24,000 nucleotides of DNA from assembly GCF_034931325.1 (NCBI RefSeq), contig NZ_JAYGHX010000012.1:49061-73060 (forward strand), given 5' to 3'. Source of the DNA: Cyanobium gracile UHCC 0139 (GTDB lineage: Bacteria > Cyanobacteriota > Cyanobacteriia > PCC-6307 > Cyanobiaceae). Numbering within the stretch: position 1 is the stretch's first letter; each line of letters starts with the position of its first letter. Both the position numbers and the translations under genes were made by a program. Below the pieces are notes generated by a model. The model saw only the letters and a list, made by a program, of their open reading frames with translations. It did no database searches and was not told the DNA's origin. Of this stretch, positions 848 through 21,210 are shown piece after piece.

Positions 848-1570
848 ATGGAGAAACCCCGCACCCTGCTGATCAGCGGCGCCAGCCGTGGCATCGGCCG
901 AGCGATCGCGGAACGGGCCCTGGCCGAGGGCCATCGGCTCAGCCTTGGCCTGCGGGATCCCGCCGCCCTGGCGGAAGGCCCGCTTCGGGAGACCGCCCGC
1001 CAGGGGACCGACAGGGTGCTCCTGCATCCCTACGAGGCGCGCGACCCCGCCCAGGCCACGGCCTGGGTGGAGGCGACCCTGGCCCGGTACGGCGCGATCG
1101 ATGGGCTGATCCACTGCGCCGGGCTCTTCTCCCGGGTGGGCCTGCTGTTCCCGCCCGGCGGCGAAGGGGAGATCGAGGACCTGTGGCGCGTGAATCTGAT
1201 GGGTCCCTGGTGGCTCACCCGGGCCGCCTGGCCAGCGCTGGTGGCCAGCGGCGACGGCCGGGTGATCACCCTGGTGTCGATGAGCGGCCAGCGGGTGAAG
1301 GGTTCCCTGACGGCCTATCCCTGCAGCAAGTTCGCCCTGATGGCCCTGTGCCAGTCGATGCGCAACGAGGGTTGGGACGCCGGCATCCGGGTGACGGCGA
1401 TCTGCCCGGGCTGGGTCAACACCGCCATGGCCTCCCAGGTGACGGCCCTGCCGGCCGAGGCCATGACGCAGCCCGAAGATCTGGCCGCCCTGACCGCTCA
1501 GCTGCTGCGGCTGCCCGCCAGCGCCGTTCCCTTCGAACTGAAGATCAACTGCGTGCTGGAACCCTGCTGA
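848..1570 (+). CDS. Short-chain dehydrogenase/reductase (SDR family oxidoreductase)
   Basis: 240 aa. N-terminal cofactor motif ISGASRGIGRAIA and catalytic YPCSK (YxxxK) are present. Third-codon positions are G/C-rich. Confidence 0.85.
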   Translation: MEKPRTLLISGASRGIGRAIAERALAEGHRLSLGLRDPAALAEGPLRETARQGTDRVLLHPYEARDPAQATAWVEATLARYGAIDGLIHCAGLFSRVGLLFPPGGEGEIEDLWRVNLMGPWWLTRAAWPALVASGDGRVITLVSMSGQRVKGSLTAYPCSKFALMALCQSMRNEGWDAGIRVTAICPGWVNTAMASQVTALPAEAMTQPEDLAALTAQLLRLPASAVPFELKINCVLEPC

Positions 1571-1576
1571 GGCCGC

Positions 1577-2947
1577 TCAGATCAGCCGCGAGCCGGAGGC
1601 CGCCTGGCGCTGGGAGGGATCGAACACCGCCGCCACGGTGCGGATCAGCCAGCGGCCCGATGCGGTCACCTCCACCAGGCCCTGGCCACCGGCCTGGCTG
1701 AGCCGCACCAGGCCGTCTTCGGCCAGGTCCTCGAGGGCGGCCCACTCGGCGGCATAACGCTCCGGATTGATCACCACCCGGAACTGGCACATCACCTCCC
1801 GGATCAGCTCCCGCCGCTCCAGCACCTCCGGATCGCTGACCACCAGCCCCCGCTCCACCGGCAGCTGGCCGGCGGCGAGGCTGGCGGCGTAGGCCTTGAG
1901 ATCCCGCTGGTTCTGGCTGAACAGGCCGGGGAACTGGCTGATCGCCGTGGGGCCCACCCCAAGCAGCTCCAGTTCCCCGCCGGTGGTGTATCCCTGAAAA
2001 TTGCGGTGCAGGCGCCCCTCCCTGGCCGCCACGGCCAGGCTGTCGCCGGAGAGGGCGTAGTGATCCATGCCGATGGCGTCGTAGCCGCACCCGCCCAGGC
2101 GGGCGGCGGCACTGTCGAGCATCTGCAGCCGCTGAAGTTGGCTGGGCAGATCCGTCGCCGCGATCTTGCGCTGCAGGGGCAGTTGCTCGGGCAGGTAAGC
2201 GAAGGAGAACAGGGACACCCGATCGGGGCGCAGGTCCTGCACCAGGGCCAGGGTGGCGTCGAACCGCTCCGGGGTCTGGAGCGGCAGACCGCAGATCAGA
2301 TCCACGTTGACGCTGGCGAAGCCCGCCTCCCGCATCCAGGCCATGGCCCGGCGCAGCTGGTCGACCGGCACCACCCGGTTCACCGCCTGCTGCACCAGGG
2401 GGTCGGCATCCTGGATGCCGAAGCTGATCCGGGAGAAGCCCAGGCGGCGCAGCTCCATCACATCCTGGCGGCTGAGGGCTTCCGGATTCACCTCGATCGA
2501 GGCCTCCAGATCGCTCGCCAGATCGAAGTGGCGCTCGATCAGACCCCAGAGGCGCTCGCGCTCGGGGATCGTCAGATAGTTGGGGGTGCCCCCGCCCCAG
2601 TGCAGCTGGGCGAGGCGACGCCGCTGGGCGGAGAGGCGGGTGATCAGCTCCAGCTCCGCGGAGAGGGCCTCCAGGTAGGGCTCCACCACCTTCGAGCCGG
2701 CGCCGGTGGTGATGCGGTTGCAGCCGCAGAACCAGCAGGCGTTGCGACAGAAGGGCACATGCACGTACAACGACAGCGGCGCGTCGGTGGGGCGGGCCAG
2801 CTGGGCCTCCAGATCGGCCGAGCTGACGCCCCCGTGGAACGCCGCGGCCGTGGGGTAGCTCGTGTAGCGGGGGACGGGCCGGTCGTGCTTGAGCAGCAGA
2901 TCGATCGGGGTGCTGGGGCGAGGAGCAATGGTGGCCGCAGGTGTCAT
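1577..2947 (-). CDS. hemN: Oxygen-independent coproporphyrinogen III oxidase (radical SAM, HemN)
   Basis: 456 aa. N-terminal PRYTSYPTA motif, radical-SAM cluster motif CRNACWFCGC (CxxxCxxC), and HWGGGTPNYL are present. Confidence 0.93.
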   Translation of the reverse strand: MTPAATIAPRPSTPIDLLLKHDRPVPRYTSYPTAAAFHGGVSSADLEAQLARPTDAPLSLYVHVPFCRNACWFCGCNRITTGAGSKVVEPYLEALSAELELITRLSAQRRRLAQLHWGGGTPNYLTIPERERLWGLIERHFDLASDLEASIEVNPEALSRQDVMELRRLGFSRISFGIQDADPLVQQAVNRVVPVDQLRRAMAWMREAGFASVNVDLICGLPLQTPERFDATLALVQDLRPDRVSLFSFAYLPEQLPLQRKIAATDLPSQLQRLQMLDSAAARLGGCGYDAIGMDHYALSGDSLAVAAREGRLHRNFQGYTTGGELELLGVGPTAISQFPGLFSQNQRDLKAYAASLAAGQLPVERGLVVSDPEVLERRELIREVMCQFRVVINPERYAAEWAALEDLAEDGLVRLSQAGGQGLVEVTASGRWLIRTVAAVFDPSQRQAASGSRLI

Positions 2948-2996
2948 GGGGAGGGGGGTTGGGGGCTGAAGGGGCCGATGGGATGGGGAGAGGTGG

Positions 2997-3686
2997 TCAG
3001 GCGGCGAGGGTCCCCAGCTCCGCCAGCAACCGCTGGGTGTCCTGGAAGGCGATCACCGATTCCTCCAGCAGCTCCAGCTCCTCGTCTTCGCTGAGGTCCA
3101 TCCGTTCGATGGCGTCATGGAGCTCCTGCTTCAGCTCGGGGATGGGGCGCTGGAACTCCCAGAACTGCACGGGCGGCAGGCCCTGGCTGGCGAGGATGGC
3201 CTTGGCCTGCTCGGCCAGTTGCTGGCCCCCGGAGAGATCGCCGCCGTAGCGCACGTAGACGTGGGCCATGAACCGGTGCGGGGCCTGCTGGGCCAGGCGC
3301 TGCAGATGCTCCAACCAGATCGCGGCCGCCGCGGAAGCGGGCGTGGCCGGGACAACGGCCAGCCTGGCGATGTCCTGGTCGAGGGCCTGGCTGCGGGCCA
3401 GGTCGGCCCAGGGGAAACCCTCGGCTCCCAGGGCGGCGGCGAGCAGGGGACCCCGGGCCTCGATCAGGGCGTAGGCGGGGGCAAGGGCACGGATCAGGGC
3501 CGCCAGCTGGAGGGGTTGGGCCTGCCCCGCCAGCAGCGACCGTGAAAAGGCCATGCCCTCGGCCTGGTGGTGGGCAGCACCGATGCGGCCATGGAGCCGA
3601 CGCACCCGGGGGCCGAACCCCTTGCGGGCGAGGACATCGGCGGGCCTGGCGTGGTCGGAGATGGCGGCAGGGATGGCGGTGGTCAT
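2997..3686 (-). CDS. ho: Heme oxygenase
   Basis: 229 aa. Proximal-His region LHGRIGAAHHQAEGMAF and the HO signature HVYVRYGGDLSGGQ (canonical YTRYLGDLSGGQ) are present. It lies 49 nt upstream of hemN on the same strand, so a ho-hemN operon is likely. Confidence 0.85.
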   Translation of the reverse strand: MTTAIPAAISDHARPADVLARKGFGPRVRRLHGRIGAAHHQAEGMAFSRSLLAGQAQPLQLAALIRALAPAYALIEARGPLLAAALGAEGFPWADLARSQALDQDIARLAVVPATPASAAAAIWLEHLQRLAQQAPHRFMAHVYVRYGGDLSGGQQLAEQAKAILASQGLPPVQFWEFQRPIPELKQELHDAIERMDLSEDEELELLEESVIAFQDTQRLLAELGTLAA

Positions 3687-3733
3687 GGGGGACGGAACCG
3701 AAGGAGAACGGGCCCGGAGGGGCGCTGATGCCT

Positions 3734-3787
3734 ACGGTATAACGGTACTGTTGTTCCATGCTTCTGTGGCAACAAATTCGTTGCATC
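3734..3787. promoter_or_regulatory. AT-rich divergent promoter/operator region between ho (-) and the ycf54-like gene (+)
   Basis: Sequence: ACGGTAtaACGGTActgTTGTTccATGCttcTGTGGcAACAAATTCgtTGCATC. It contains a tandem ACGGTA repeat, a TTGTT..AACAA dyad and ATGC-N21-GCAT. The words ATAACG, TGTGG, ATTC and TGCATC recur in the same order at 7341-7404. Confidence 0.3.
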
Positions 3788-3834
3788 CGCCGCCTTCGCT
3801 CCCCGCCCCCGTCCCCTCCACGCCCCCCTCCGCC

Positions 3835-4260
3835 ATGTCCACCACCACCCAGAACCCGACCACCGCGCCCCTGCGCTCCCTCTCCTTTCTGGTGGCCCCC
3901 CTGGGCCAGCTCAGCGGGGACGGCCAGCTGCGGGAACTGATCGAGGAACGCCGCCAGCGCAAGGGCGCGGACGTGGAGCTCTGGTATCTGGGACCGGAGC
4001 TGGTGGAGGAGCTGCGCCTGGCCCAGGCCTTCCGCAATCCCCCTGCGAAAGACCAGGACCAGGCACGTCCACAGGAGACCATCGAAGCGATCGTGGCTGG
4101 GGACGCAGCGGTGATCACCTGGCTGGAGCTGCGCTTCGGCGGTTGCACCGGCAGCCTGGCCCTGCAGGCTGGCTGGCTGCAGGAGCGTGCCGGGGCGCTG
4201 CCGCCCCGGACCCCGGTCGCCGACACCGCCACCAGCACCGCCCGCTGCGCCCACACCTAG
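3835..4260 (+). CDS. Ycf54-like (DUF2488-type) protein, divergent paralog; putative partner of the AcsF cyclase
   Basis: ATG at 3835 inside the 3553-4260 ORF; 141 aa with high GC3. The pattern FLVAP..L....LRELIEERRQR.G.DVELWYLGPELV ... EAIVAGDAAVITWLELRF parallels Ycf54 as I recall it (ALASQKFLLEEEP..E.L.ERRR.Y.....IDFW...P.F ... AIVST...I.W.KLRLEY). Confidence 0.6.
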   Translation: MSTTTQNPTTAPLRSLSFLVAPLGQLSGDGQLRELIEERRQRKGADVELWYLGPELVEELRLAQAFRNPPAKDQDQARPQETIEAIVAGDAAVITWLELRFGGCTGSLALQAGWLQERAGALPPRTPVADTATSTARCAHT

Positions 4261-4265
4261 GGATT

Positions 4266-4314
4266 CCGGAGCCGGTGGCCTCCGGCTGCTGGCCGCGGGG
4301 AACACCCCCTGCGG
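4266..4314 (+). terminator. Two consecutive GC-rich hairpins downstream of the ycf54-like gene (possible terminator/attenuator, no U-tract)
   Basis: Hairpin 1: CCGGAG (4266-4271) pairs with CTCCGG (4280-4285). Hairpin 2: CCGCGGGG (4293-4300), loop AACA, then CCCC-ct-GCGG (4305-4314). Confidence 0.25.
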
Positions 4315-4458
4315 TGGTCCCGGGGCCGTGACAGCGACGCCCAGCGGTGTTTGTGTTGGGCTGACGGCCCGATCCCCCGGGCGGAGGCGCAGTGAAACCG
4401 ACCCCAACGAACCCACCGGCAATGACCCTTTCGAGCCATCCCCTGGCTCCTGCCGCCG

Positions 4459-5499
4459 GTGCCTGATCTCACCCCGGCCGTCGGCGGCACCTCCGCCGCC
4501 CCCTTCTGCAACCTGCTGCTGCCCACCGGCGCCCAGGCGCGGGGGCGCACCCTTCCCGGCCGCAAGGTCGTGATCGTGGGCTGCGGCGCCGTGGGCATGG
4601 CCTGCGCCGTCTCGATCCTGCATCGGGGCTGCCAGGAGGAGCTGGTGCTGGTGGATGTGGCCCACGACCGGCTGGAGGGGGAGGTGATGGACCTCTGCCA
4701 TGGCCTGCCCTTCCTGCCCCGCACCGACCTGCGGGCCGGGAGCGTGGAGGAGGAGGGACGGGATGCGGATCTGGTGGTGATCACCGCCGGTGTGGCCCAG
4801 CGGCCGGGCCAGTCACGGCGGGAACTGATCGAGCGCAATGCGGACCTGTTCCGCAGGCTCGTGCCGCCGATCGCCCTCCACTGCCCCCGGGCGGTGTTGC
4901 TGGTGGTGAGCAACCCGGTGGATGTGCTCACCCACATCGCCGGCCAGCTGAGCGGCTTCCCCGCCCACCGGGTGATCGGCTCGGGCACCGTGCTCGATTC
5001 GGCCCGCTTCCGCATGGCCATCAGTCGCCGGCTGGGGATCGATCCCCACGACGTCCAGGCCTGGGTGATCGGCGAACACGGTGATTCCGAGGTGCCGGTC
5101 TGGAGCCGGGTGGTGGTGGCTGGCTCCGGGCTCGTGGATGGCGGCTGGGAAGGCAGCCGCACCCTGGCGGATCCGGAGCTTCAGGAGCTGTTCCATGACG
5201 AGGTGCGCCAGGCGGCCTATGAGATCATCCGGCTCAAGGGCAGCACCTCCTGGGCGATCGGGCTGGCCACCGCCGAGATCGTCGAGGCGGTGCTGCGCAG
5301 CAAGGACCAGATGCTCACGGTGAGCAGCCGCAGCCACGGCCACTACGGCCTGCCCGATGTCTGCCTGAGCCTGCCCACGATCGTCAACGACAGCGGCGCC
5401 GCCGCCCTGGTGCAGATGGCCCTGACGGAGAAGGAAATGGGCCAACTGCGCCAGAGCGCCGAACTGCTGCGGGGCATGCTCGATGAGGCTGGGTTCTGA
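4459..5499 (+). CDS. ldh: L-lactate dehydrogenase (LDH/MDH superfamily, Gln at the substrate-specificity position)
   Basis: Motifs: KVVIVGCGAVG Rossmann fold, ITAGVAQRPGQSRRELIERN (Gln rather than the Arg of LDH-like MDHs), VSNPVD, GSGTVLDSARFR, VIGEHGDSEVPVWS. The track start is a GTG. About 32 residues precede the Rossmann motif, so the true start is uncertain. Confidence 0.8.
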   Translation: MPDLTPAVGGTSAAPFCNLLLPTGAQARGRTLPGRKVVIVGCGAVGMACAVSILHRGCQEELVLVDVAHDRLEGEVMDLCHGLPFLPRTDLRAGSVEEEGRDADLVVITAGVAQRPGQSRRELIERNADLFRRLVPPIALHCPRAVLLVVSNPVDVLTHIAGQLSGFPAHRVIGSGTVLDSARFRMAISRRLGIDPHDVQAWVIGEHGDSEVPVWSRVVVAGSGLVDGGWEGSRTLADPELQELFHDEVRQAAYEIIRLKGSTSWAIGLATAEIVEAVLRSKDQMLTVSSRSHGHYGLPDVCLSLPTIVNDSGAAALVQMALTEKEMGQLRQSAELLRGMLDEAGF

Positions 5500-5500
5500 C

Positions 5501-6187
5501 CTAGGCCGCCTGCGCCGCCCTGCCGGCCAGTCGCGCCACCAGCCCCCGGGCCTGGCGCGGCTCGAAGCCCACCGTCTCGATCGCCGCCTGGAAGCAGGCC
5601 ACGAATTCGCCGACCACGTCGGTGGGATCGATGCCGATCGCCGTCAGGTCGTCGCGGACGCTCTGGAGCATGGCCAGCACGATCGGCAGGGCGCGCTCGC
5701 AGCAGGCCGCGATTGGTGCGGCCACCTCCGGGAACCAGGCCGCCAGCCAGCGTCCGCCGTACTCGAGGTGTTCCGCCTCATCGGTGAGCACCGCCTGGAT
5801 GATCGGCGCGGCGAAGGGGTCGGCCACCGGCTGGTAGCAGCGGTAGGCGGCCACGGCGAAGCTCTCCACGATCAGGCACTGGATCACCAGGGCGCTGACG
5901 CGGTCGCCGCTGCGCACGGCCTCGCGGAACAGCCGGTGCAGGGGTGCGAACAGGCGGCGTGCCAGCGGCAGATCCGGGCGGATCCCCAGCTGCCTGCCGC
6001 AGCCGGAGAAGTCGCGGGCGTGGTGCCCCTCCATGGCGGCGAGGCGCATCAGGTCGTCGCGGTCCTCCGGCAGGAGGCCGGCCAGCAGGCGGAAGTGGCT
6101 GTCCGCCAGGCCTTCACCCACGATCACCAGGGCGTTGATGCGGCTGTAGGCATCGCGGTAGGCGGGGGTCATCAATGGCTGGGGCAT
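5501..6187 (-). CDS. Aldehyde-deformylating-oxygenase (ADO) family ferritin-like di-iron protein, non-canonical paralog
   Basis: 228 aa, ATG start. YRDAYSRINALVIVGEGLA, AAMEGHH, LVIQCLIVESFAVAAY, PVADPFA and TDEAEHLEYG align with the ADO family. The E / ExxH / E / ExxH di-iron ligands are retained. It lies 76 nt downstream of acsF on the same strand. Confidence 0.75.
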   Translation of the reverse strand: MPQPLMTPAYRDAYSRINALVIVGEGLADSHFRLLAGLLPEDRDDLMRLAAMEGHHARDFSGCGRQLGIRPDLPLARRLFAPLHRLFREAVRSGDRVSALVIQCLIVESFAVAAYRCYQPVADPFAAPIIQAVLTDEAEHLEYGGRWLAAWFPEVAAPIAACCERALPIVLAMLQSVRDDLTAIGIDPTDVVGEFVACFQAAIETVGFEPRQARGLVARLAGRAAQAA

Positions 6188-6263
6188 GGGGAAGGACGCA
6201 AGGGAACAGAAGCTGAGCCATCCGATGGGACGGCCTGCCGGACAAACCGCTGGAGGGCCGGGC

Positions 6264-7316
6264 TCAGCCCGCCTCCGCCCGCACCATCGGCTGCCAGAAC
6301 TGCTGCCACAGCAGCCCGCCGAAGCGCAGCCTCAGGCCGATCTGGCGCAGGGGGCCGTCCCCCTGGCGGCGGGCGACGCCCATCTCCTGGAAGCAGGCGA
6401 CGAGGCGATCCCGCAGGGCGATGTAGCCGCCGGACTCCAGATCGAACACCCAGGGGAAGGCCCGGCGGGCCGTGCGGTTGGTCTGACGCATCACCTCGGC
6501 ATCGAAGGCCTCCGGATCCATCCCCAGGATCCGGTAGAACTCGCCGCGCTCACAGACCGTGAGGCTGTGGGTGAGAAACACCGACCACAGGAAGAAGCGA
6601 CTCAGCAGCTTGCCGCGCAGGCCCTGGCGCAGGGCCGGCCAGCAGCGGATCAGCATGTTGAAGATGTCGCCATGGCGGTTTTCGTCCTGGCACCAGGGCT
6701 CGAAGAAATCGAACAGCGGTGCGAAGTTGCTGTCGGGGTGGGCCTTGAGGTGGCGGTCGATGAGGATGTATCGCCAGTAGCCGATCTTCTCCGACAGGAA
6801 GACGCTGTAGAGCACCCAGCTCAGGGGGAACCAGGTGATCGGCCGCTTGGTGCTGAGGCTGGGCAGATCGATCTCGATGCCCTCGGCCACCAGCGCCCGG
6901 TTGAGGAAGCCGGCATGGCGGGCCTCATCGCGGGCCATCAGCTGGAACAGCCGCCCCATCTCGGGACGCTGCGCCTGGAACAGCCGCCGGGAGAGCTCCT
7001 TGAACAGCAGAAAGCCGGAGAACTCCGACACGCAGGAGCGCACCAGATAGCTCTCGTAGGCCTCCTTCTCCTCGGGGCTCAGGTCCCGGAGCCGGTCCAG
7101 CTGTGCCTTGCGATCGAAGTGGTCGCGGTTGTAGTCCGCCTCCATCTCGGCGAGCATCGCGTCGAAGGCCGGCCGCTGCGGCTCCAGATCCGTGCGGGCC
7201 GCCTTGGCGATCTGGGTCGTGTAGAACCGCGGCGTCAGCAGGTCTTCCCGCAGGTGGGGGGCCGCCGGGGCGGCCACAGATGAGCCCGCAGCAGGGGAGG
7301 AGAGGGTGGCGGTCAT
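6264..7316 (-). CDS. acsF: Mg-protoporphyrin IX monomethyl ester oxidative cyclase (AcsF / ChlA / CycI)
   Basis: Start taken at the internal ATG 7316 (MTATLSS...), giving 350 aa. Motifs: LLTPRFYTT, SCVSEFSGFLLFKEL, ARDEARHAGFLN, CQDENRHGD (di-iron ExxH motifs). Confidence 0.92.
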   Translation of the reverse strand: MTATLSSPAAGSSVAAPAAPHLREDLLTPRFYTTQIAKAARTDLEPQRPAFDAMLAEMEADYNRDHFDRKAQLDRLRDLSPEEKEAYESYLVRSCVSEFSGFLLFKELSRRLFQAQRPEMGRLFQLMARDEARHAGFLNRALVAEGIEIDLPSLSTKRPITWFPLSWVLYSVFLSEKIGYWRYILIDRHLKAHPDSNFAPLFDFFEPWCQDENRHGDIFNMLIRCWPALRQGLRGKLLSRFFLWSVFLTHSLTVCERGEFYRILGMDPEAFDAEVMRQTNRTARRAFPWVFDLESGGYIALRDRLVACFQEMGVARRQGDGPLRQIGLRLRFGGLLWQQFWQPMVRAEAG

Positions 7317-7373
7317 CGGGAGGCGACGCTGTCTCACGTCATAACGACATCGTGATACTACGTGATCCGCCCT

Positions 7374-7403
7374 ATGCAGACTTGTGGTTTCACGATTCTG
7401 CAT
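7374..7403. promoter_or_regulatory. Candidate operator: perfect 7-bp inverted repeat ATGCAGA-N16-TCTGCAT in the acsF/arsR divergent region
   Basis: ATGCAGA at 7374-7380 and TCTGCAT at 7397-7403 are exact reverse complements. They lie in an AT-rich island, 58 nt upstream of the acsF ATG and 59 nt upstream of the arsR ATG. A tandem CGTGAT repeat (7351-7356 and 7361-7366) sits next to it. Confidence 0.4.
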
Positions 7404-7461
7404 CAACAATCTGAGACGCAAGCGTGGTAGTCTGCCCCAGTCCTGGGTCCCGCTGCGGTCG

Positions 7462-7767
7462 ATGGAATCTCTGGCCGACTACTTCAAGGTGTTCTCCGAA
7501 CCCAACCGGCTCACGGTGCTGGAGACCCTGCGCCCGGGCCCCCTGAACGTCACGGCCGTCGTCGAGAAGACCGGCCTCAGCCAGGCCCTGGTGTCCAAGC
7601 ATCTCAAGCTGCTCACCATCGCCGGGGTGGTGCGTCGCCGTCCCGAAGGCAGCCTGGTGTTCTATGAAGTGATTGACAAGGGTGTCTTCCAGCTCCTGGC
7701 CCAGGCCCGGAAGCTGATGCTCGCCTCCCGCCGCCAGCAACTCGATGCCCTTGCGGCCATCCTCTGA
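7462..7767 (+). CDS. ArsR/SmtB-family winged-helix transcriptional regulator (no Cys, one His)
   Basis: Start taken at ATG 7462 (MESLADYFKVFSEPNRLTVLETL...), giving 101 aa. It has the typical ArsR HTH_5/20 pattern (FxxLxxxxRLxIL..L, then LSQALVSKHLKLLTIAGVV). Confidence 0.85.
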   Translation: MESLADYFKVFSEPNRLTVLETLRPGPLNVTAVVEKTGLSQALVSKHLKLLTIAGVVRRRPEGSLVFYEVIDKGVFQLLAQARKLMLASRRQQLDALAAIL

Positions 7768-8413
7768 GCTCCCCGCCGATCTCCCCGTCGACCTGGACGC
7801 CCTCAAACGCGCCCTGGCCAAGGGGCGCCGTCACTTCGCCGGCCTGCGGCTGGGGGACCTTGATGGTGTGGCGCTCGATCTCGGCGACTGCGACCTGCAC
7901 GGCGGCTGCTTCAAGGAAGGCCGCTTCGGCCACGCCCGACTGGCGGGGGCGAACGTGGAGGCGGCCTGCTTCCAGCAGGCGCTGCTCTGGGGGGCCGACC
8001 TCTCCGATCTCAAGGCCGGCGGCTCCTTCTGGCACGACGCCGATCTGTCGTCGGCCCGGCTGCAGGGGGCCGATTTCAGCGCCGCCCTGATGCACCGCTG
8101 CTGCCTGCGGGGGGTGCTCGGGGCCCACAGCCGCTGGCGGTCCACCCGGCTGGTGGAAGCCGACTTCCGCGGCGGACTCGATCAGCGCACCGATCTGGGC
8201 TGGGCCGATTTCCAGGGGGCCGATCTCAGCTTCGCCCAGATGCAGGGGGCCCTGCTGCAGGGGAGTGATCTGCGCGGTGCCTGCCTCTACGGCACCAACA
8301 TGGGAGGGGCCGACCTGAGGGACGCCGATCTGCGCGGCTGCGATCTGCGGGACACCGATCTCCGGGACGCCATGCTGGAAGGCACCCTGCTCCACGACGC
8401 CCTGCTGCCATGA
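7745..8413 (+). CDS. Pentapeptide-repeat protein
   Basis: 222 aa of A(D/N)LxX-type pentapeptide repeats (GADLSDLKA, ADLSSARLQGADFSAA, GADLSFAQMQGALLQGSDLRGACLYGTNMGGADLRDADLRGCDLRDTDLRDA). The ATG overlaps the arsR 3' end by 23 nt. The stop overlaps the gor ATG (ATGA). Confidence 0.85.
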   Translation: MPLRPSSELPADLPVDLDALKRALAKGRRHFAGLRLGDLDGVALDLGDCDLHGGCFKEGRFGHARLAGANVEAACFQQALLWGADLSDLKAGGSFWHDADLSSARLQGADFSAALMHRCCLRGVLGAHSRWRSTRLVEADFRGGLDQRTDLGWADFQGADLSFAQMQGALLQGSDLRGACLYGTNMGGADLRDADLRGCDLRDTDLRDAMLEGTLLHDALLP

Positions 8414-9768
8414 CCGACTGCTTCGATCTGATCGTCCTCGGGGCGGGCTCCGGTGGCCTGGCCGCTGCCAAACGGGCGGCCTCCTACGGGGCCTCCGTGG
8501 CGATCGTGGAGGGCGACCGGGTGGGGGGGACCTGCGTGATCCGCGGCTGCGTACCCAAGAAGCTGCTGGTCTACGGCTCGGCCTACCGCCACGTGCTCGC
8601 CGATGCCGCCAGCTACGGCTGGCAGCTGGATGGCTTCCGACCGGACGCTTCGGTGCTGCTCGCCAACGTGCGCCGGGAGGTGGACCGACTCAATCAGCTG
8701 CACATCACCCTGCTGGAGAAGGCAGGCGTCGAGCTGGTGCGCGGCTGGGGCCGGTTCGCCGATCCCCACCACATCGAGGTGATCCAGGACGGCGAGACCA
8801 ACCGACGCCTCAAGGGCGAACGGATCCTGATCGCCGCCGGCGGCCGGCCGCACCGGCCCACCATCCCCGGGGCTGAGCTGGGCTGGGTCAGCGACGACAT
8901 GTTCCTGCAGGAAAGCTTCCCGGACCGGGTCGTGGTGGTGGGGGCGGGCTTCATCGCCTGCGAATTCGCCTGCATCCTGCACGGCCTTGGGGTGGCGGTG
9001 ACCCTGTTGGTGCGGGGCGACCACCTGCTGCGGGGCTTCGACCGGGAAGCCTCCCATGCGGTGCAGGAGGCCATGGAGGCCGAAGGCATCGAGATCCGCT
9101 TCACCCACAGCCCCGCCGCCATCACGGGCGTGCCCGGCGCCCTGGAGCTGGTCACCCAGAGCGGCGAGGTGCTGGCCTGCGGCGGCGTGCTGCTGGCCAC
9201 GGGCCGCAGGCCCTTCCTTGAGGGGCTGCAGCTGGAATGCGCCGGGGTGGCGGTGGAAGGCCACCGCATCCCGGTGGATGCCGACCAGACCACCAACGTG
9301 CCCCACATCCATGCGGTCGGCGATGTGACCGACCGCATCAACCTCACCCCGGTGGCGGTGGACGAAGGCCGGGCCTTCGCCGACACCGTCTACGGCAACA
9401 AGCCCCGCCAGGTCAACCATGACCTGGTGGCCAGCGCCGTGTTCAGCCAGCCGGAACTGGCTGGGGTGGGGCTGAGCGAGGAGGCGGCGATCGAGCGCTT
9501 CGGTGCCGAGGGCATCCGGGTGCACCGGGCCCGCTTCCGGCCCATGGCCCAGGCCCTGCCGGCCCGGGGGCCCCGGGTGCTGCTGAAGCTGATCGTGGAG
9601 AGCGCCACCGACAAAGTGGTGGGCTGCCACATGGTGGGCGAGCACAGCGCCGAGATCATTCAGATGGCGGCGATCGCCATCGGCATGGGCGCCACCAAGG
9701 CCGACTTCGACCGCACCATGGCCCTGCACCCCTCGGTGGCCGAGGAGTTCGTCACCATGGCCGGCTGA
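8410..9768 (+). CDS. gor: Glutathione-disulfide reductase
   Basis: 452 aa. Motifs: FDLIVLGAGSGG FAD fold, redox-active GGTCVIRGCVPKK, second dinucleotide fold VVVGAGFIACEFA, C-terminal HP(S/T)xxEE dimerisation/active-site motif (ALHPSVAEEF). Confidence 0.9.
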   Translation: MTDCFDLIVLGAGSGGLAAAKRAASYGASVAIVEGDRVGGTCVIRGCVPKKLLVYGSAYRHVLADAASYGWQLDGFRPDASVLLANVRREVDRLNQLHITLLEKAGVELVRGWGRFADPHHIEVIQDGETNRRLKGERILIAAGGRPHRPTIPGAELGWVSDDMFLQESFPDRVVVVGAGFIACEFACILHGLGVAVTLLVRGDHLLRGFDREASHAVQEAMEAEGIEIRFTHSPAAITGVPGALELVTQSGEVLACGGVLLATGRRPFLEGLQLECAGVAVEGHRIPVDADQTTNVPHIHAVGDVTDRINLTPVAVDEGRAFADTVYGNKPRQVNHDLVASAVFSQPELAGVGLSEEAAIERFGAEGIRVHRARFRPMAQALPARGPRVLLKLIVESATDKVVGCHMVGEHSAEIIQMAAIAIGMGATKADFDRTMALHPSVAEEFVTMAG

Positions 9769-9783
9769 ACAGGACCGGGGCGA

Positions 9784-10065
9784 TCAGAGCTCCTCTTCCA
9801 CCCCAGGCCGGATGGTGCAGTCCGCGAGGGGGTAGCTGACGCAGAGCAGGGCGAAGCCTTCGCCGATCTGGTCATCGTCGAGGAAGCTCTGGTCGGACTG
9901 GTCGACGCTGCCGGAGAGGATCTTGCCAGCACAGGTGCTGCAGGCCCCGGCGCGGCAGGAGTAGGGCAGATCAATGCCCTGCTCCTCGGCCGCGTCGAGG
10001 ATGTAGGTGTCGTCGGGGCAGCTGAAGGACTTCCCTCCTTCCAGGCTGATCGTGAAGCTCGCCAT
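9784..10065 (-). CDS. petF: Plant-type [2Fe-2S] ferredoxin
   Basis: 93 aa. The sequence [31 protein letters not shown] ... LLCVSYP carries the CxxxxCxxC...C cluster ligands. Confidence 0.93.
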
Positions 10066-14890: not shown

Positions 14891-15991
14891 TCAGGCCACC
14901 ACAGGCAGGAACAGCTCCAACACCGCCCCGCCCCGGGGATGGTTGGAGGCCTGGATGCGGCCGCCATGGGTGACGGCGATCTGCTGGACGATCGCCAGAC
15001 CCAGTCCGCTGCCGCCCCGGTCGCTGCGTACCCGGGAGGGATCGCCGCGGTAGAAGCGCTCGAACATGTGCTCGAGGTCGTCCTCGCTGAGGCCGGGGCC
15101 CTCGTCGCGCACCGTCAGCAGACACCAGCCCACCGTCGCTTCGATCTCCACCCACACGGTCCCTCCCTCGGGGCTGTAGCGCAGGGCATTGTCCAGCAGG
15201 TTGAGCACGGCTCGATGCAGCCGCGAGCCATCCCCCAGCACCGCCAGGTCCCCCTGGGCGGTGAACTCCAGGCGGATGGAACGCCGCTCGGCCAGGGGCC
15301 GCAGGCCGAGCCAGACCTGCTGCACCAGCTGGGGCAGGTCGACGCGGCCGCGGCGGCGCACCCCCTCGGGCAGGGTGTTCTCCAGCCGGGAGAGCTCCAT
15401 CAGGTCGCCGACGAGCCGCTGCAGCCGCAGCAACTCCCGCTGCAGCCGTTCCACCAGAACGGCATTGGCGTCGTTGACGTGGGCGGCCAGGCTGTCACCC
15501 ACCAGCAACAGCGCCGTGAGGGGTGTCTTGAGTTCGTGGGCCACATCGCTCACCCAGCGCTCCTGCTGCTCCAGCTGGGCTTCGAGCGAACGACGACTCT
15601 GGAGCAGCACGGCCACCCAGCCGTCGTCCCCGGGCAGGACGAACACGGCCAGCTGCTGCTCCCCGAGCTCCCAGTCGAGACGCTGGGGCCGCTCCCGCCG
15701 GCGGGCGTTGCGGATCACCTCCAGCAGCTCGGGCGACCGGCAGACCCGGTCGAGGGGTTCCTGGCGCCGCATCCCCGCTCCAGGGGCCTCCAGCAGCCGT
15801 TCGGCCCGCTGGTTGATCAGCTGGATGCGATCGCCGCTGTCGAGAATCAGCCAGCCATCGGGGGCCTCTCCGATCCAGCGCAGCAACTGCCGAAGGGACA
15901 GCCCGGAGAGGGATCGGCCGGGCCGACCGGTACGACGCGCCAGCAGCCAACCCAGGGCGAGACCCAGCAGCCCCGCCAGCAGAACCCCCAT
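14891..15991 (-). CDS. phoR: Sensor histidine kinase, PhoR/SphS type (N-terminal anchor, PAS-like, HisKA, HATPase)
   Basis: 366 aa. H-box VSDVAHELKTPLTAL, N-box LLDNALRYS and G-boxes RDEGPGL / GGSGLGLAIV are present. It lies immediately downstream of the OmpR-family regulator. Confidence 0.85.
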   Translation of the reverse strand: MGVLLAGLLGLALGWLLARRTGRPGRSLSGLSLRQLLRWIGEAPDGWLILDSGDRIQLINQRAERLLEAPGAGMRRQEPLDRVCRSPELLEVIRNARRRERPQRLDWELGEQQLAVFVLPGDDGWVAVLLQSRRSLEAQLEQQERWVSDVAHELKTPLTALLLVGDSLAAHVNDANAVLVERLQRELLRLQRLVGDLMELSRLENTLPEGVRRRGRVDLPQLVQQVWLGLRPLAERRSIRLEFTAQGDLAVLGDGSRLHRAVLNLLDNALRYSPEGGTVWVEIEATVGWCLLTVRDEGPGLSEDDLEHMFERFYRGDPSRVRSDRGGSGLGLAIVQQIAVTHGGRIQASNHPRGGAVLELFLPVVA

Positions 15992-16684
15992 TCAGCCGAA
16001 GCGGTAGCCGAAGCCCCGGACGGTGATCAGGTGCTCGGGGGCCGAAGGGTTGGCCTCCAGCTTCTCCCTCAGCCAGCGGATGTGGACGTCGACCGTCTTG
16101 CTGTCGCCGAAGTAGTCGTAGCCCCAGACCCGCTCGAGCAGCTTGTCGCGGCTCCAGACGCGGCGGGGATGCTGCATGAACAGCTCCAGCAGCCGGTACT
16201 CCTTCGGCGAGAGGTTGACCTCCAGGCCATCGCGGGTGACGCGGCACTCCTCGGGGAACAGGCTGAGGTTGGCGTGCTGAAGCACCTTGGCGGCCACCTC
16301 CACCGAGCGGCTGCGGCGCAGCAGGGCACGGCAGCGGGCCACCAGCTCCCGCAGACCGAAGGGCTTGATCAGATAGTCGTCGGCCCCCACCTCCAGCCCC
16401 AGCACCCGGTCGGTCTCGCTGTCGCGGGCACTGACCACCAGGATGGGGGTCTGGTTGCCGGCAGAGCGCAGCTGCCGGCAGAGGTCAAGTCCCCCCAGCC
16501 CGGGCAGCATCAGATCGAGAACGACGAGGGAGAACTCCTCACCCGGTGGGCATTCCTGCAGGGTGCGCAGGGCCTCCTTGCCGTTGCCGCAAGCGGTGAC
16601 GGAAAAGCCCTCCAGCACCAGAACGTCGCGGATGGTTTCGCGGATCGTGTCGTCGTCCTCGACGACCAGAAGCGGGGGATGCAT
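15992..16684 (-). CDS. phoB: OmpR/PhoB-family response regulator (PhoB/SphR type)
   Basis: Start taken at ATG 16684 (MHPPLLVVEDDD...), giving 230 aa. The receiver domain has the VVLDLMLPG acceptor Asp. The C-terminal winged helix reads VDVHIRWLREKLE...ITVRGFGYRF. Confidence 0.9.
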   Translation of the reverse strand: MHPPLLVVEDDDTIRETIRDVLVLEGFSVTACGNGKEALRTLQECPPGEEFSLVVLDLMLPGLGGLDLCRQLRSAGNQTPILVVSARDSETDRVLGLEVGADDYLIKPFGLRELVARCRALLRRSRSVEVAAKVLQHANLSLFPEECRVTRDGLEVNLSPKEYRLLELFMQHPRRVWSRDKLLERVWGYDYFGDSKTVDVHIRWLREKLEANPSAPEHLITVRGFGYRFG

Positions 16685-16728
16685 GCCGGCATTATCGCTG
16701 TCGGCGACGGGGAGATCCCAGAACTGTC

Positions 16729-17361
16729 TCAACGCCGTGGCAGATAGCTGACCACCAGACGCCGCTGGCTGTCGAGCTGCAGCCAGCCCTCGTCGCGGAG
16801 GGCGCCGATCACGCGGGTGACCGTGACACGGGTGGTGGCCAGGGCGCTGGCCACCTCCTGATGGGTCAGGCGCAGGTTGAGGCGCAGACCCGATTCACAG
16901 GGCTGGCCGTACTCACTGGCGAGAAGTTCGAGGAAGCCGCGCACCCGTTCGTCGACACGTTTCAGACCCATCAGGGCCAGCAGGGCCTGGCTCTGCTGGA
17001 TGCGCTGGCCCAGGGCTTCCAGCATGGCCACGGCCAGGGTGCCGTCCTGGCGGATCTCGCTGCAGCTGAGGCAGAGCAGGTCCGTGTCGGACAGGGTGGT
17101 GGCGGCGTAGGCCTCGACACCGTTGAGGGGATCACCGAAGGGCTCGTTGGGGCCGGCCAGACCGAGCAGCATCTCGTCGCCGTGGATGGTGATGGCACTC
17201 AGCTTGACCATGCCGCGAACCACAAGCCAGACGTTGTTCTTCAGCAGGGGGACGTGACTCCCGGCGCTGACATGAACCAGACTGCGTTTCTGGTAGTTCG
17301 CTTCGAGAAGCTCGCGGAATCCATCCTTGCTGCCGGATTCACGGGAGGGCGTGAATACCAT
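16729..17361 (-). CDS. CRP/FNR-family transcriptional regulator (PtrA-like by context)
   Basis: 210 aa. A cNMP-binding-like beta-roll is followed by the C-terminal HTH LTHQEVASALATTRVTVTRVIGALRDEGWL. It lies between the sphX-CHAD pair and phoBR. Confidence 0.85.
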   Translation of the reverse strand: MVFTPSRESGSKDGFRELLEANYQKRSLVHVSAGSHVPLLKNNVWLVVRGMVKLSAITIHGDEMLLGLAGPNEPFGDPLNGVEAYAATTLSDTDLLCLSCSEIRQDGTLAVAMLEALGQRIQQSQALLALMGLKRVDERVRGFLELLASEYGQPCESGLRLNLRLTHQEVASALATTRVTVTRVIGALRDEGWLQLDSQRRLVVSYLPRR

Positions 17362-17378
17362 CGGGGAAAGCGCATCGG

Positions 17379-17400
17379 ATGCAGCGAACTGTATGCAGCG
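17379..17400. repeat. Direct repeat ATGCAGCG-N6-ATGCAGCG upstream of the CRP-family gene
   Basis: Exact 8-mers at 17379-17386 and 17393-17400 (14-bp period), 18-39 nt upstream of the ATG at 17361. The adjacent sequence GCATCgGATGC (17372-17382) is palindromic. Confidence 0.3.
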
Positions 17401-17438
17401 ACACTCGGTAGATGGGCAAAGGGCTGGTAGTGCTTTGG

Positions 17439-18398
17439 TTAAGAGCTCGGTAAGGCGGATGGGGCCACCAGGCCCGGTTTCGGCAGACCCTCGCAGCGAC
17501 GTTCGAGCAACGCCATCGCCAGGCTGCGGCGCCGCTCGGGGAGGATCAGGCCATCGGCCCGCTGACGCCAGTGTTCCCAGCAGGTCTGGGCGCGGCGGCG
17601 CAGCAGGGCCTCCAGCACGGGCACGCTGCGCACCAGCCCCGCTGGCAGCTGGTCATCGATCGCCTTCTCCAGGACATGGAGATCGTTGAGTTCGCCGAGC
17701 AGCTCCTGCAGGTCCCGCAACTCGGCCATCCACTGCCGGCAGCGGGAGCCGGTAACGGCACCGAGGTTCTCCAGGCCATAGCGCGCCGTCTTCAGTCGCT
17801 TGCGCAGGTCGTGGACGAGCTCCATGTCGCCGTGACGATCCGCGATGAACCAGCCGGGGTGCTGGAACAGGCCGGCCACCATCGGGGCCTGCCACTCCTG
17901 GGTCCAGGAGCGCAGGGGAAGGGCCCCCAGCGGGGTGAGATCGGGCTCCCTGAGCCAGCCCTGCAGCTGGGAGAGCAGCTTCAGATAGCCGCCGCTGCGC
18001 AGGGCCGTGACCAGCTGCTCGTAGGCCAGGGCCCGCTCGCGCCGCAACTGCTTCAGCACCGGCCGCAGGGCCTTGCGCTCCGCCTCAGGCAGCTCGCCCA
18101 TGAGGTCCTGCTCCAGCCGCTGGCGCAGCACATCCAGATCCCGCGCCATGCCGAGCCGACGCACCGTCTTGGCGAGCCGGGGATCGCCGACGGCCCGGGG
18201 CAGCCGCAGGGCGGGGGCGAACTGCTGCAGACAGGTGCGCAGACGACGCAGGGACACCCGCATCTGATGCAGGGGTTCGGGGTCCCGGTCGGCCAGAACG
18301 GGTCCCTGGAGGGACACCAGCTTGTGGGTATGGCGGCCGATCAGATCAACGGCGAAGGCTCCGTTGCTGAAGGGATGGTCGTCGTGCGGGCTGGCCAT
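17439..18398 (-). CDS. CHAD-domain protein
   Basis: Start taken at ATG 18398 (MASPHDD...). The track start at 18419 is a TTG that overlaps the sphX stop. CHAD hallmarks are present: LHQMRVSLRRLRTCLQQF, VHDLRKRLKTARYGLENL, LRDLQELLGELNDLHV. Confidence 0.8.
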   Translation of the reverse strand: MASPHDDHPFSNGAFAVDLIGRHTHKLVSLQGPVLADRDPEPLHQMRVSLRRLRTCLQQFAPALRLPRAVGDPRLAKTVRRLGMARDLDVLRQRLEQDLMGELPEAERKALRPVLKQLRRERALAYEQLVTALRSGGYLKLLSQLQGWLREPDLTPLGALPLRSWTQEWQAPMVAGLFQHPGWFIADRHGDMELVHDLRKRLKTARYGLENLGAVTGSRCRQWMAELRDLQELLGELNDLHVLEKAIDDQLPAGLVRSVPVLEALLRRRAQTCWEHWRQRADGLILPERRRSLAMALLERRCEGLPKPGLVAPSALPSS

Positions 18399-18415
18399 GG
18401 AAAGGGCCAAGGGCC

Positions 18416-19507
18416 TCAACGGGGTGTCTTCGAGCGGATCTCCTCGAAGCTGCGGCGGATGGCCTGGCTGATGGTGAGTCCGATGGGCAGATCGCCGCCG
18501 AAGGAGGTGCCCAGCAGATGCCGATAGAGCTTGGACTCAACAATACGGTAGGTATCGGGAGGCAGGGGAATGGCGCCGGCCTGCTCGGTGAAGCGCAGAC
18601 CCCTCTGAACGGCGAACGTGATGAACCGGCGTACGTCCGGCCTCTCCCGCAGGTCCTTGTCGTTCACGTAGACAAACAGCGGACGGGAGAGGGGCTGGTA
18701 GCGCTCCCGCTGGACATTGTTCACCGAGGGCAGCCAGGCGCCCCTCGGACCGGCAATTTCAAGGGCTTTCAGCTTGCCGCCCTGGCTGCGGTAGTAGGAG
18801 AAACCAAAGTAACCGAGGGCAAGCGGATTTTTCTCAACACAACGTACCAGAACGTTATCATCTTCACTGCCGGTGTAATCGCTACGGGAGTTACCCGAAT
18901 CTCCGTTGATGGCTTTGTTGAAGTAGTCAAAGGTGCCAGAATCCTTGCCGGGGCCGCAAAGGCTGATCGGCCGATCCGGCCAGGCGGGATTGACCTGTTT
19001 CCAACGCTGGATACGTCCCTGAGCCTTGCGGTTCCAGAGGGTGGAGAGCTGGGCCGTACTGATGCGGCTGGCCCAGGTGTTGCGGGGGTTGACCACCACG
19101 GAGATGGCATCGAAGGCCAGCGGCAGTTCGATGAAGCGGACACCCCTGGCGGCGCAGGCCTTCAGTTCCTTGGAATTGATCGGGCGGGAGGAATTGCTGA
19201 TCGGGATCTCACCTCGGCAGAAGCTGCGCAGGCCGCCGGAGCTGCCCGTCTCCTTCAGGGCGATGGAGACCGGCGGACCACCCGGCCGCTCCTGGAAGGC
19301 CCTGGCGGCCGCCTCCATGATGGGGAAGACGGTGCTCGACCCCTCGATCCGCACCACCGGCGCCGGGGCGCTCTGGGCCTGGGCCCGCTGCGCCACCAGG
19401 GAGGGCCCCAGCCAGACCCCGATCAAAAGACCCAACCCAGCTCCGACCCGGTGGCGCTTCGCCCCCGGGCACGGCGTCGGAACTGTCGCGGACAGCTTCA
19501 GGACCAT
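18416..19507 (-). CDS. sphX: Phosphate ABC-transporter substrate-binding protein, PstS family (SphX-like)
   Basis: 363 aa. A signal peptide ending AQRAQAQS is followed by VRIEGSSTVFPIMEAAARAF, ISNSSRPI and AFDAISVVVNPRN, which are typical of the PstS/SphX periplasmic-binding fold. Confidence 0.85.
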   Translation of the reverse strand: MVLKLSATVPTPCPGAKRHRVGAGLGLLIGVWLGPSLVAQRAQAQSAPAPVVRIEGSSTVFPIMEAAARAFQERPGGPPVSIALKETGSSGGLRSFCRGEIPISNSSRPINSKELKACAARGVRFIELPLAFDAISVVVNPRNTWASRISTAQLSTLWNRKAQGRIQRWKQVNPAWPDRPISLCGPGKDSGTFDYFNKAINGDSGNSRSDYTGSEDDNVLVRCVEKNPLALGYFGFSYYRSQGGKLKALEIAGPRGAWLPSVNNVQRERYQPLSRPLFVYVNDKDLRERPDVRRFITFAVQRGLRFTEQAGAIPLPPDTYRIVESKLYRHLLGTSFGGDLPIGLTISQAIRRSFEEIRSKTPR

Positions 19508-19567
19508 GGGTCTTGACCAGCGAAGGGGAGGCGCTGGGCCGATCCTGCACCACGAAGACCGGGGGTT

Positions 19568-19586
19568 GGGTTAAGGGGAGATTGTG
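19568..19586 (-). promoter_or_regulatory. Weak Pho-box candidate upstream of sphX
   Basis: The minus strand reads CACAATCT-ccc-CTTAACCC. These are two 8-mers at 11-bp spacing resembling the cyanobacterial PyTTAAPyPy(T/A) repeat (5/8 and 7/8 matches), 61-79 nt upstream of the ATG. A third repeat is not evident. Confidence 0.2.
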
Positions 19587-19587
19587 G

Positions 19588-19628
19588 CTGGGACCGCGGG
19601 AGTGCCTTGGGCGGCGGATGGGTCCCAG
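19588..19628 (-). terminator. Stem-loop directly after the corA stop
   Basis: CTGGGACC (19588-19595) and GGTCCCAG (19621-19628) are exact reverse complements around a 25-nt G/C-rich loop. On the minus strand the structure starts 5 nt after the corA stop. There is no U-tract. Confidence 0.35.
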
Positions 19629-19632
19629 GCCG

Positions 19633-21177: not shown

Positions 21178-21210
21178 CTGCCGTCTGCGCTGTGACAGCG
21201 ATCACGGCAG
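21178..21210. terminator. Compound hairpin between convergent genes (possible bidirectional terminator)
   Basis: CTGCCGT (21178-21184) pairs with ACGGCAG (21204-21210). This encloses CGCTGT-g-ACAGCG (21188-21200). The structure overlaps the pyruvate-kinase-family stop codon. Confidence 0.45.

Follow-up and report, generated by a model that had tools for sequence, protein, structure and literature searches.

Clusters that join alternative forms of the chlorophyll, bilin, and heme enzymes AcsF, heme oxygenase, and HemN are known from several cyanobacteria. In Synechocystis 6803 and Synechococcus 7002 they form a single operon, chlAII(acsFII)-ho2-hemN(-desF), divergent from chlR, whose MarR-type product carries a [4Fe-4S] cluster (PMC4500134, PMC13421787); in Synechococcus 7002 the operon also supplies DesF, an isoform for low O2 of a di-iron desaturase that depends on O2 (PMC4500134), and the ChlR box has the consensus TTMCC-N3/4-GGWAA (PMC13421787). 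In picocyanobacteria, Ulloa et al. (2021, PMC7980375) describe an acsF2-ho2-hemN2 cluster for Prochlorococcus of the anoxic marine zone (AMZ) as well as for Synechococcus RS9917, WH8101, and CB0101, and name arsR and "yjbL" as neighbors in the legend of Fig. 3A. The same cluster, again under the names acsF2, ho2, and hemN2, is reported in a 2026 paper for Cyanobium BSA11S, CDS3229, 3233, and 3234 (PMC13588713). In this study, we analyzed a stretch of 24,000 nt from Cyanobium gracile UHCC 0139 (contig NZ_JAYGHX010000012.1, positions 49,061–73,060), hereafter the window. Our findings support, with a probability that we put at roughly 0.7, a model where positions 1577–7767 represent the picocyanobacterial acsF2-ho2-hemN2 cluster in the form that it takes in C. 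gracile (subcluster 5.2), with alternative chlorophyll, bilin, and heme enzymes for conditions of scarce O2 and with the roles and control set out below.

The window has a G+C content of ~70%, and its genes were called via Pfam and NCBIfam matches, with third-position G+C where needed (table 1). Seven genes lie in the segment, those for HemN, a heme oxygenase, a Ycf54-like protein, an L-lactate dehydrogenase (L-LDH), an ADO-family protein, AcsF, and a divergently transcribed ArsR-family regulator. A preliminary description of this DNA, made from its letters alone, had listed the same seven genes, six of them in three back-to-back units and arsR divergent from acsF; the profile matches recover every one of them and the layout is correct. 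The genes are real, while the extents assigned to two of them were not: acsF starts at 7316 (MTATLSS..., 350 aa) instead of 7421, and arsR at 7462 (MESLADY..., 101 aa) instead of 7384. Mechanical open reading frames (ORFs) overextend both 5′ ends, and the true divergent intergenic region spans 145 bp (7317–7461).

The view that this island is a counterpart of the low-O2 chlAII-ho2-hemN module is upheld by its synteny with the cluster that Ulloa et al. (2021) described and with acsF2-ho2-hemN2 of Cyanobium BSA11S. On the BSA11S chromosome (L024; loci of our survey are cited by such numbers) the order arsR-pentapeptide/acsF ... ho-hemN is the same, and its AcsF is 83%, its heme oxygenase 72%, and its HemN 69% identical to that of the window. 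The likeness thus extends from the three core genes to arsR and the adjacent pentapeptide-repeat gene, which is probably the "yjbL" of Fig. 3A in Ulloa et al. (2021). The two loci differ in what separates acsF from ho: the window carries there the ADO-family gene (here ADO-II), the Ycf54-like gene (here ycf54-II), and L-ldh, none of which occurs in the BSA11S locus, where desaturase, GT8-like, and transketolase-like genes are found instead. With the systems of Synechocystis 6803 and Synechococcus 7002 the window shares the enzyme families, a regulator gene divergent from acsF, and what appears to be an extra O2-dependent di-iron lipid enzyme (DesF there, ADO-II here, a desaturase in relatives), but it is organized in two divergent units instead of one operon. 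The regulator had been presented as a departure from ChlR; it is indeed of the ArsR and not of the ChlR/MarR type, yet it is not new, an arsR neighbor being already present in Fig. 3A of Ulloa et al. (2021). Because the core cluster and its ArsR-type neighbor have been published (PMC7980375, PMC13588713), the core finding was already known and the main claim in itself adds little. In the accessible text of these two papers we found no discussion of ADO-II, of a Ycf54 paralog, or of a shared promoter motif.

The variable composition of the island became apparent from a scan for AcsF in one genome per species, which retained 80 loci, all of the Cyanobium/Synechococcus 5.2 type, with AcsF identities of 68–97%. 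Window proteins were placed on these loci by tblastn; 74 loci had enough flank for upstream counts, and islands with acsF, ho, and hemN inside 12.5 kb were taken as complete (n = 59). The clustering of these genes is not due to chance, as the neighborhood is repeated in 80 species-level genomes of the subcluster 5.2 group; the survey across Cyanobium and Synechococcus that the preliminary description had proposed thus finds it conserved. Upstream of acsF, arsR and the pentapeptide gene are present in 70/74 loci, and hemN lies downstream of the heme oxygenase gene in all 59 complete islands. The ADO paralog occurs in 45 of these and the Ycf54-like gene in 44, but L-ldh in 13 only, and the exact order of the window (acsF, ADO, ldh, ycf54-like, ho, hemN) was seen 12 times, always in the closest clade. 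From this survey we therefore regard L-ldh as a recent local addition, and the ADO paralog and the 141-aa Ycf54-like gene as common members; of three genes previously taken together as extras, two are widespread and one is confined to the closest clade. Conversely, a hemerythrin-like gene (PF01814) lies directly upstream of acsF in 27 complete islands, a membrane fatty-acid desaturase gene (PF00487) directly downstream of it in 16, and a GT8-like gene occurs in 12. The suggestion that the C. gracile module is more complete than others is contradicted by these counts, since many relatives add the hemerythrin upstream and the desaturase downstream of acsF and the window has neither. Examples of the desaturase gene are L024:11032–11919 and L052:11077–12000, with 14 further loci, and a GT8-like gene is often next to it.

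Part of this plasticity is concentrated between ADO-II and ycf54-II, a gap that is an insertion hot spot with unrelated cargo in other genomes: an isoamylase gene in L008; a response regulator, a 2-oxoglutarate (2OG) oxygenase, and an ABC transporter in L022; and, in C. gracile PCC 6307, a 9-kb block between ADO-II and ldh (L081:10735–19524). The genes of the latter block encode a cysteine synthase-like protein, a rhodanese, a hexapeptide transferase, an SrpI-like protein, aminotransferases, two phycobilisome-family proteins, and a carbonic anhydrase. The L-ldh gene, found in the closest loci only with 93–98% identity, is a clade-specific insertion in this variable slot. Direct reading of its product shows an LDH-type Gln within GVAQRPGQSR as well as the DSAR motif and EHGD, and the GTG start of the gene is backed by an N-terminal extension conserved in orthologs.

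Among the common members, the 141-aa protein is, as judged from profile and fold matches, a divergent form of Ycf54, the auxiliary subunit of the oxidative cyclase (Slr1780; 5M2P, 3HZE, 3JSR). The initial Ycf54-like call was right. When all PDB sequences were searched with a profile built from 19 orthologs, five matched at E ≤ 10, all of them Ycf54 (3HZE with E = 0.001, then 5M2P and 3JSR). An AlphaFold (AF2) model from 44 homologs, with a mean predicted local distance difference test score of 76.6, had Ycf54 as its top four Foldseek matches in PDB (probability 1.00, target TM-score ~0.6), the next match having E ≥ 0.19. Seven residues are highly conserved in Ycf54: A9, F13, E22, E26, D39, F40, and R82 (PMC13297055). 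The Ycf54-II family retains the equivalents of A9, E22, E26, and R82 as A21, E34, E38, and R100, invariant or nearly so, together with W50 and W96, the counterparts of W41 and W78; loss of R82 in Ycf54 abolishes cyclase binding (PMC5317394). The resemblance therefore covers the fold, a profile match over the whole core, and these six positions, whereas Ycf54-II departs from Ycf54 in its low identity (17–21%), its N- and C-terminal extensions, a variable insert, and the setting of its gene, which lies inside a low-O2 island where that of Ycf54 stands alone. A weak PF10674 match is seen in just 6/19 orthologs, and each of the 120 homologs in databases carries the label hypothetical and lacks a Pfam domain; a C. 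gracile UHCC 0139 protein among them is 100% identical. We found no published account of a Ycf54 paralog from this cluster. Ycf54-II may be a dedicated docking partner of AcsF2.

A similar paralogy is observed for ADO-II, which has the Pfam family, the length, and the six di-iron ligands (E, ExxH, E, ExxH) of cyanobacterial ADO (2OC5, 4RC5, 4Z5S; nearest 5UX2), the ligands being invariant in 121 aligned clade members. Its best PDB match is 5UX2 (248 bits), canonical ADOs scoring ≤ 177 bits, and its top 120 database relatives are 40–47% identical to the canonical ADO 4Z5S but 52–67% to 5UX2; ADO-II thus represents a separate clade, and several of these relatives share contigs with island loci. 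Wherever it occurs, the gene directly follows acsF, or acsF and the desaturase gene, on the same strand; in C. gracile PCC 6307 (L081) it adjoins acsF and overlaps the acsF stop by 4 bp. Two ADO homologs have been reported in C. gracile PCC 6307, CB0101, and RS9917 (Coates et al. 2014, PMC3903477), the latter two of which also have the acsF2-ho2-hemN2 cluster according to Ulloa et al. (2021). This long-noted second homolog in Cyanobium, CB0101, and RS9917 is a member of the island. By analogy with DesF, its closest precedent, ADO-II could be a low-O2 isoform of ADO.

Both divergent intergenic regions of the island carry the same promoter element. Its extended form, ACNNTNNCGTTATNNCGT, has exactly two matches with ≤ 2 mismatches in the 24-kb window, the two sites of table 1, against 0.2 expected. 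Across 1.42 Mb (loci plus window) there are 74 copies of the core CGTTAT-N2-CGT, of which 73 lie at the acsF-operon promoter or between ho and the ycf54-like gene and nearly always point to acsF or ho; in relatives, 44 ho/ycf54-like intergenic regions and 27 acsF-operon promoters have it. With the hemerythrin gene inserted, the motif remains on the arsR side of the operon. The hemerythrin-like gene itself sits between the shared motif and acsF (L022:9504–10004, L031:9453–9917, and ~30 other loci), and it is striking that the acsF operon of these relatives opens with the gene of a di-iron protein that binds O2. On the heme-oxygenase side, TGCAACGAA falls in the ho/ycf54-like intergenic region at 29 of 33 sites in the same 1.42 Mb. 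There, the element is downstream of a GCAAC-N6-GTTGC inverted repeat, the inner CAAC-N6-GTTG of which is the sole one in the window (0.12 expected) and is replaced in other clades by GTTGC-N8/9-GCAAC; CAAC-N6-GTTG is the palindrome reported for the Fe-S regulator SufR. On the acsF side, the element is preceded by a −10-like TAGTAT, a putative promoter hexamer, although a sigma-70 consensus scan of 1400–8000 called no promoter, TAGTAT included, and no −35 element is evident. The middle of the same intergenic region holds a longer inverted repeat, whose outer arms, ATGCAGA/TCTGCAT, show partial conservation limited to the close clade. A reading of the shared motif as an RNA element was rejected: since Rfam gave no match and the leaders fold no better than shuffled sequences (z = +1.0 and −1.2), it is more likely a DNA element.

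The adjacent regulator is unlike ChlR in its family and in its composition. It is a true ArsR-family protein, above cutoff for both PF01022 (winged-helix HTH_5) and NF033788. Its PDB relatives are ArsR, NmtR, SmtB, Rv0081, and NolR, and it scores 26.8 bits against MarR_2, below cutoff. Among 73 orthologs, 72 have no cysteine; the recognition helix, with a single conserved His, is near-invariant, and the metal- or thiol-sensing site of the family (α3 Cys, α5 Asp/His/Glu) is lacking. With no cysteine, the protein holds neither a Fe-S cluster of the ChlR type nor a thiol switch of the RexT type, and therefore a signal must arrive in another way. In this regard it resembles the non-metal ArsR/SmtB proteins (RexT of Anabaena, Rv0081, NolR), which are likewise small winged helix, dimer-type proteins, lack the metal sites of the family, and are divergent from their presumed targets; yet RexT senses redox via vicinal cysteines (PMC13421787). 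In agreement with a control other than that by ChlR, the box TTMCC-N3/4-GGWAA has no exact match in the window and none with ≤ 2 substitutions in either intergenic region. The linkage of arsR to the element and their co-conservation suggest that this ArsR binds it, with a regulator encoded at a distance as the possible alternative.

Overall, we propose that two divergent promoter regions sharing the 18-bp element ACnnTnnCGTTATnnCGT would drive the island. From one of them, acsF2 and then ADO-II would be transcribed in one direction, and arsR, the pentapeptide gene, and gor (glutathione reductase) in the other; from the second, ho2 and then hemN2 would be read one way, and ycf54-II and then ldh the other way. 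When O2 becomes scarce, HemN would substitute for the O2-requiring HemF, AcsF2 and HO2 would act as low-O2-suited isoforms of O2-dependent enzymes, and ADO-II would be the matching isoform of an O2-dependent alkane-forming di-iron enzyme, parallel to DesF in Synechococcus 7002. Ycf54-II would serve AcsF2 as its docking partner, and L-LDH, a recently inserted cargo, may regenerate NAD+ by fermentation. Low-O2 induction would not proceed via ChlR; the likeliest candidate is the cysteine-free ArsR encoded next door, with the conserved elements as its sites of action.

Several observations weigh against this model. Ycf54-II scores below the gathering cutoff of PF10674 (16.2 vs. 25 bits) and lacks F13 (Q25 instead); E48, at a position that varies in the family, stands in for D39, and L49 for F40. 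ADO-II is likewise under the TIGR04059 equivalog cutoff (209.1 vs. 222.65 bits) and adjoins acsF instead of an acyl-ACP reductase gene: its neighbors are acsF and ldh, and no acyl-ACP reductase gene was found within the window. The shared element is nearer to a direct repeat or a weak palindrome than to the classic ArsR 12-2-12 operator. The heme oxygenase, which retains the proximal His and the YVRYxGDLSGGQ distal helix and has no NCBIfam match, is equally far from HO2 (1WOV, 36.2 bits) and HO1 (1WE1, 35.7 bits) of Synechocystis; it is not demonstrably an HO2 ortholog, and the name ho2 follows published naming. Two further points come from published work: in low-light Prochlorococcus an AcsF2-type enzyme is the sole cyclase (PMC7980375), and in the one published set of picocyanobacterial expression data acsF2, ho2, and hemN2 of BSA11S rise by just log2 0.1–0.5 in dark anoxia compared with light-oxic conditions (PMC13588713), which is far from a ChlR-style on/off switch. 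The latter two facts, with a probable housekeeping gene, gor, in the arsR operon, are what would be expected if these were the main, constitutive tetrapyrrole genes instead of low-O2 spares, clustered by shared pathway and cofactor needs and not in response to oxygen. We hold that explanation to be quite improbable. HemN is an O2-labile radical-SAM enzyme, relatives add a hemerythrin, and the island is missing from most marine relatives according to Ulloa et al. (2021). Moreover, C. gracile PCC 6307 has two ADO homologs, and a second cyclase gene is visible in L078, where positions 1–258 encode the C-terminal 86 aa of an AcsF1-type protein, 37% identical to the island AcsF across that stretch; they share their contig with the island and lie 10 kb upstream of it. 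Used as a query, this fragment matched short metagenomic fragments only. Cyanobacterial AcsF proteins form one cluster at 50% identity, and its full-length representative (P0241) is equidistant (66–73%) from all island AcsF proteins.

The remaining doubts concern the regulator and the additional enzymes. CGTTAT-N2-CGT might be bound by a regulator encoded elsewhere, for instance a Fe-S protein or a two-component O2/redox sensor, with ArsR autoregulating the arsR-pentapeptide-gor operon only and being a bystander to the tetrapyrrole genes. An ArsR with neither cysteine nor metal site has no obvious means of O2 sensing, the element is not a clean inverted repeat, the 13-4-13 palindrome and the CAAC-N6-GTTG site could be the true ArsR sites, and L032, L035, and L037 have the motif with no adjacent arsR. 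We nonetheless consider this the less likely option, though the most credible of the alternatives, given that arsR is linked to the acsF promoter in 70/74 loci, that the motif stays on its side of the operon where the hemerythrin gene intervenes, and that recognition helix and motif are both highly conserved. It is somewhat more doubtful that both ADO-II and L-LDH are passengers of a permissive insertion site, with no functional tie to the tetrapyrrole genes. The slot between ADO-II and ycf54-II does receive unrelated cargo, as the sulfur/phycobiliprotein-like/carbonic-anhydrase block of PCC 6307, L008, and L022 illustrate, and L-ldh is restricted to 13/59 islands; for the origin of the latter this account is probably correct. 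ADO-II, on the other hand, is found in 45/59 islands, always in the position downstream of acsF and on its strand, is translationally coupled to acsF in PCC 6307, and has all of its top 120 database relatives in the one paralog clade.

Beyond the segment, the arsR stop is overlapped by 23 nt by the pentapeptide gene, as also in C. gracile PCC 6307, and this gene and gor overlap by 4 nt; these overlaps imply that arsR, the pentapeptide gene, and gor form one operon. A dedicated redox-sensor role for its reductase was considered and dropped, as the score is that of an ordinary glutathione reductase, and gor is probably a housekeeping gene. Just past gor, at 9784–10065 on the minus strand, is the gene of a plant-type [2Fe-2S] ferredoxin (93 aa), kept in the 20 closest loci. 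Since AcsF, ADO, and heme oxygenase all use ferredoxin, it may donate electrons to them. Further along, on the minus strand, a phosphate-related block (14891–20754) encodes a histidine kinase and response regulator, PtrA (NF053664, 349 bits), a CHAD protein, a PstS-like binding protein, and CorA, and appears to have no relation to the island. A pyruvate kinase of unusual length (606 aa, PRK14725 type) is encoded at 21202–23022 (minus strand), ~13 kb from the island.

Table 1. Genes and candidate regulatory sites of the island and its downstream flank in the C. gracile UHCC 0139 window (position 1 is the first nucleotide of the window)
Feature	Position	Strand	Evidence or remark
hemN (hemN2), O2-independent radical-SAM coproporphyrinogen III oxidase, 456 aa	1577..2947	-	TIGR00538 equivalog, 453.6 bits (cutoff 324.95); PF04055
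Heme oxygenase (ho2 in published naming), divergent, 229 aa	2997..3686	-	PF01126, 80.9 bits
Shared element, heme-oxygenase type, ACAGTACCGTTATACCGT (core CGTTAT-N2-CGT)	3734..3751	-	48 bp upstream of heme oxygenase start
Inverted repeat TGCAAC-GAATTT-GTTGC, holding CAAC-N6-GTTG (3770-3783)	3769..3785	-	ho/ycf54-like intergenic region
Ycf54-II, predicted divergent Ycf54 paralog, 141 aa	3835..4260	+	C-terminal part of mechanical ORF 3553-4260
NAD-dependent L-lactate dehydrogenase, 346 aa	4459..5499	+	TIGR01771, 332.6 bits (cutoff 303.55)
ADO-family di-iron protein (ADO-II paralog clade), 228 aa	5501..6187	-	PF11266, 206 bits
acsF	6264..7316	-	NF010172, 426.8 bits; TIGR02029, 353.3 bits
Shared element, acsF type, ACGATGTCGTTATGACGT	7336..7353	-	20 bp upstream of acsF start
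TAGTAT, -10-like hexamer of a putative promoter	7355..7360	-	Immediately upstream of acsF-type element; GTAGTAT conserved in 27-site alignment
13-4-13 imperfect inverted repeat ATGCAGACTTGTG/CACGATTCTGCAT, candidate operator	7374..7403		Middle of acsF/arsR intergenic region; arms 85% complementary
ArsR/SmtB-family winged-helix regulator, 101 aa	7462..7767	+	NF033788, 72.6 bits (cutoff 55); PF01022
Pentapeptide-repeat protein	7745..8413	+	PF00805, 100 bits; HetL-like, 131.6 bits, below cutoff
Glutathione-disulfide reductase (gor)	8410..9768	+	NF004776, 527.9 bits (cutoff 480)

What the locus adds to published work is modest: a paralog of Ycf54, the assignment of the second ADO to the island, a modular pan-island that extends to hemerythrin and desaturase genes, and an operator-like element shared by the two units and accompanied by a cysteine-free ArsR. 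A family present in most islands and so far unannotated is a divergent Ycf54, which suggests that the low-O2 cyclase AcsF2 of picocyanobacteria has an auxiliary subunit of its own. For the second ADO homolog, its place in the island gives a testable role, that of a low-O2 isoform in parallel to DesF. A broader proposal, which we make tentatively and regard as rather unlikely to hold as a whole, is that subcluster 5.2 has a modular "oxygen-scarcity island" that unites the O2-using di-iron enzymes AcsF2, ADO-II, and the desaturase with the hemerythrin, the Ycf54 paralog, HO2, and HemN under one conserved operator and a cysteine-free ArsR. If so, this ArsR would sense something other than O2, candidates being a tetrapyrrole or lipid intermediate that builds up and a signal that arrives via the co-transcribed pentapeptide-repeat protein, and the logic of control would be unlike the Fe-S switch of ChlR. 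The specific shared element, the lack of ChlR boxes, and the cysteine-free ArsR together delimit a small regulon in which low-oxygen sensing becomes directly testable, with relevance to the persistence of picocyanobacteria in anoxic lakes, the Black Sea, and oxygen-minimum zones.

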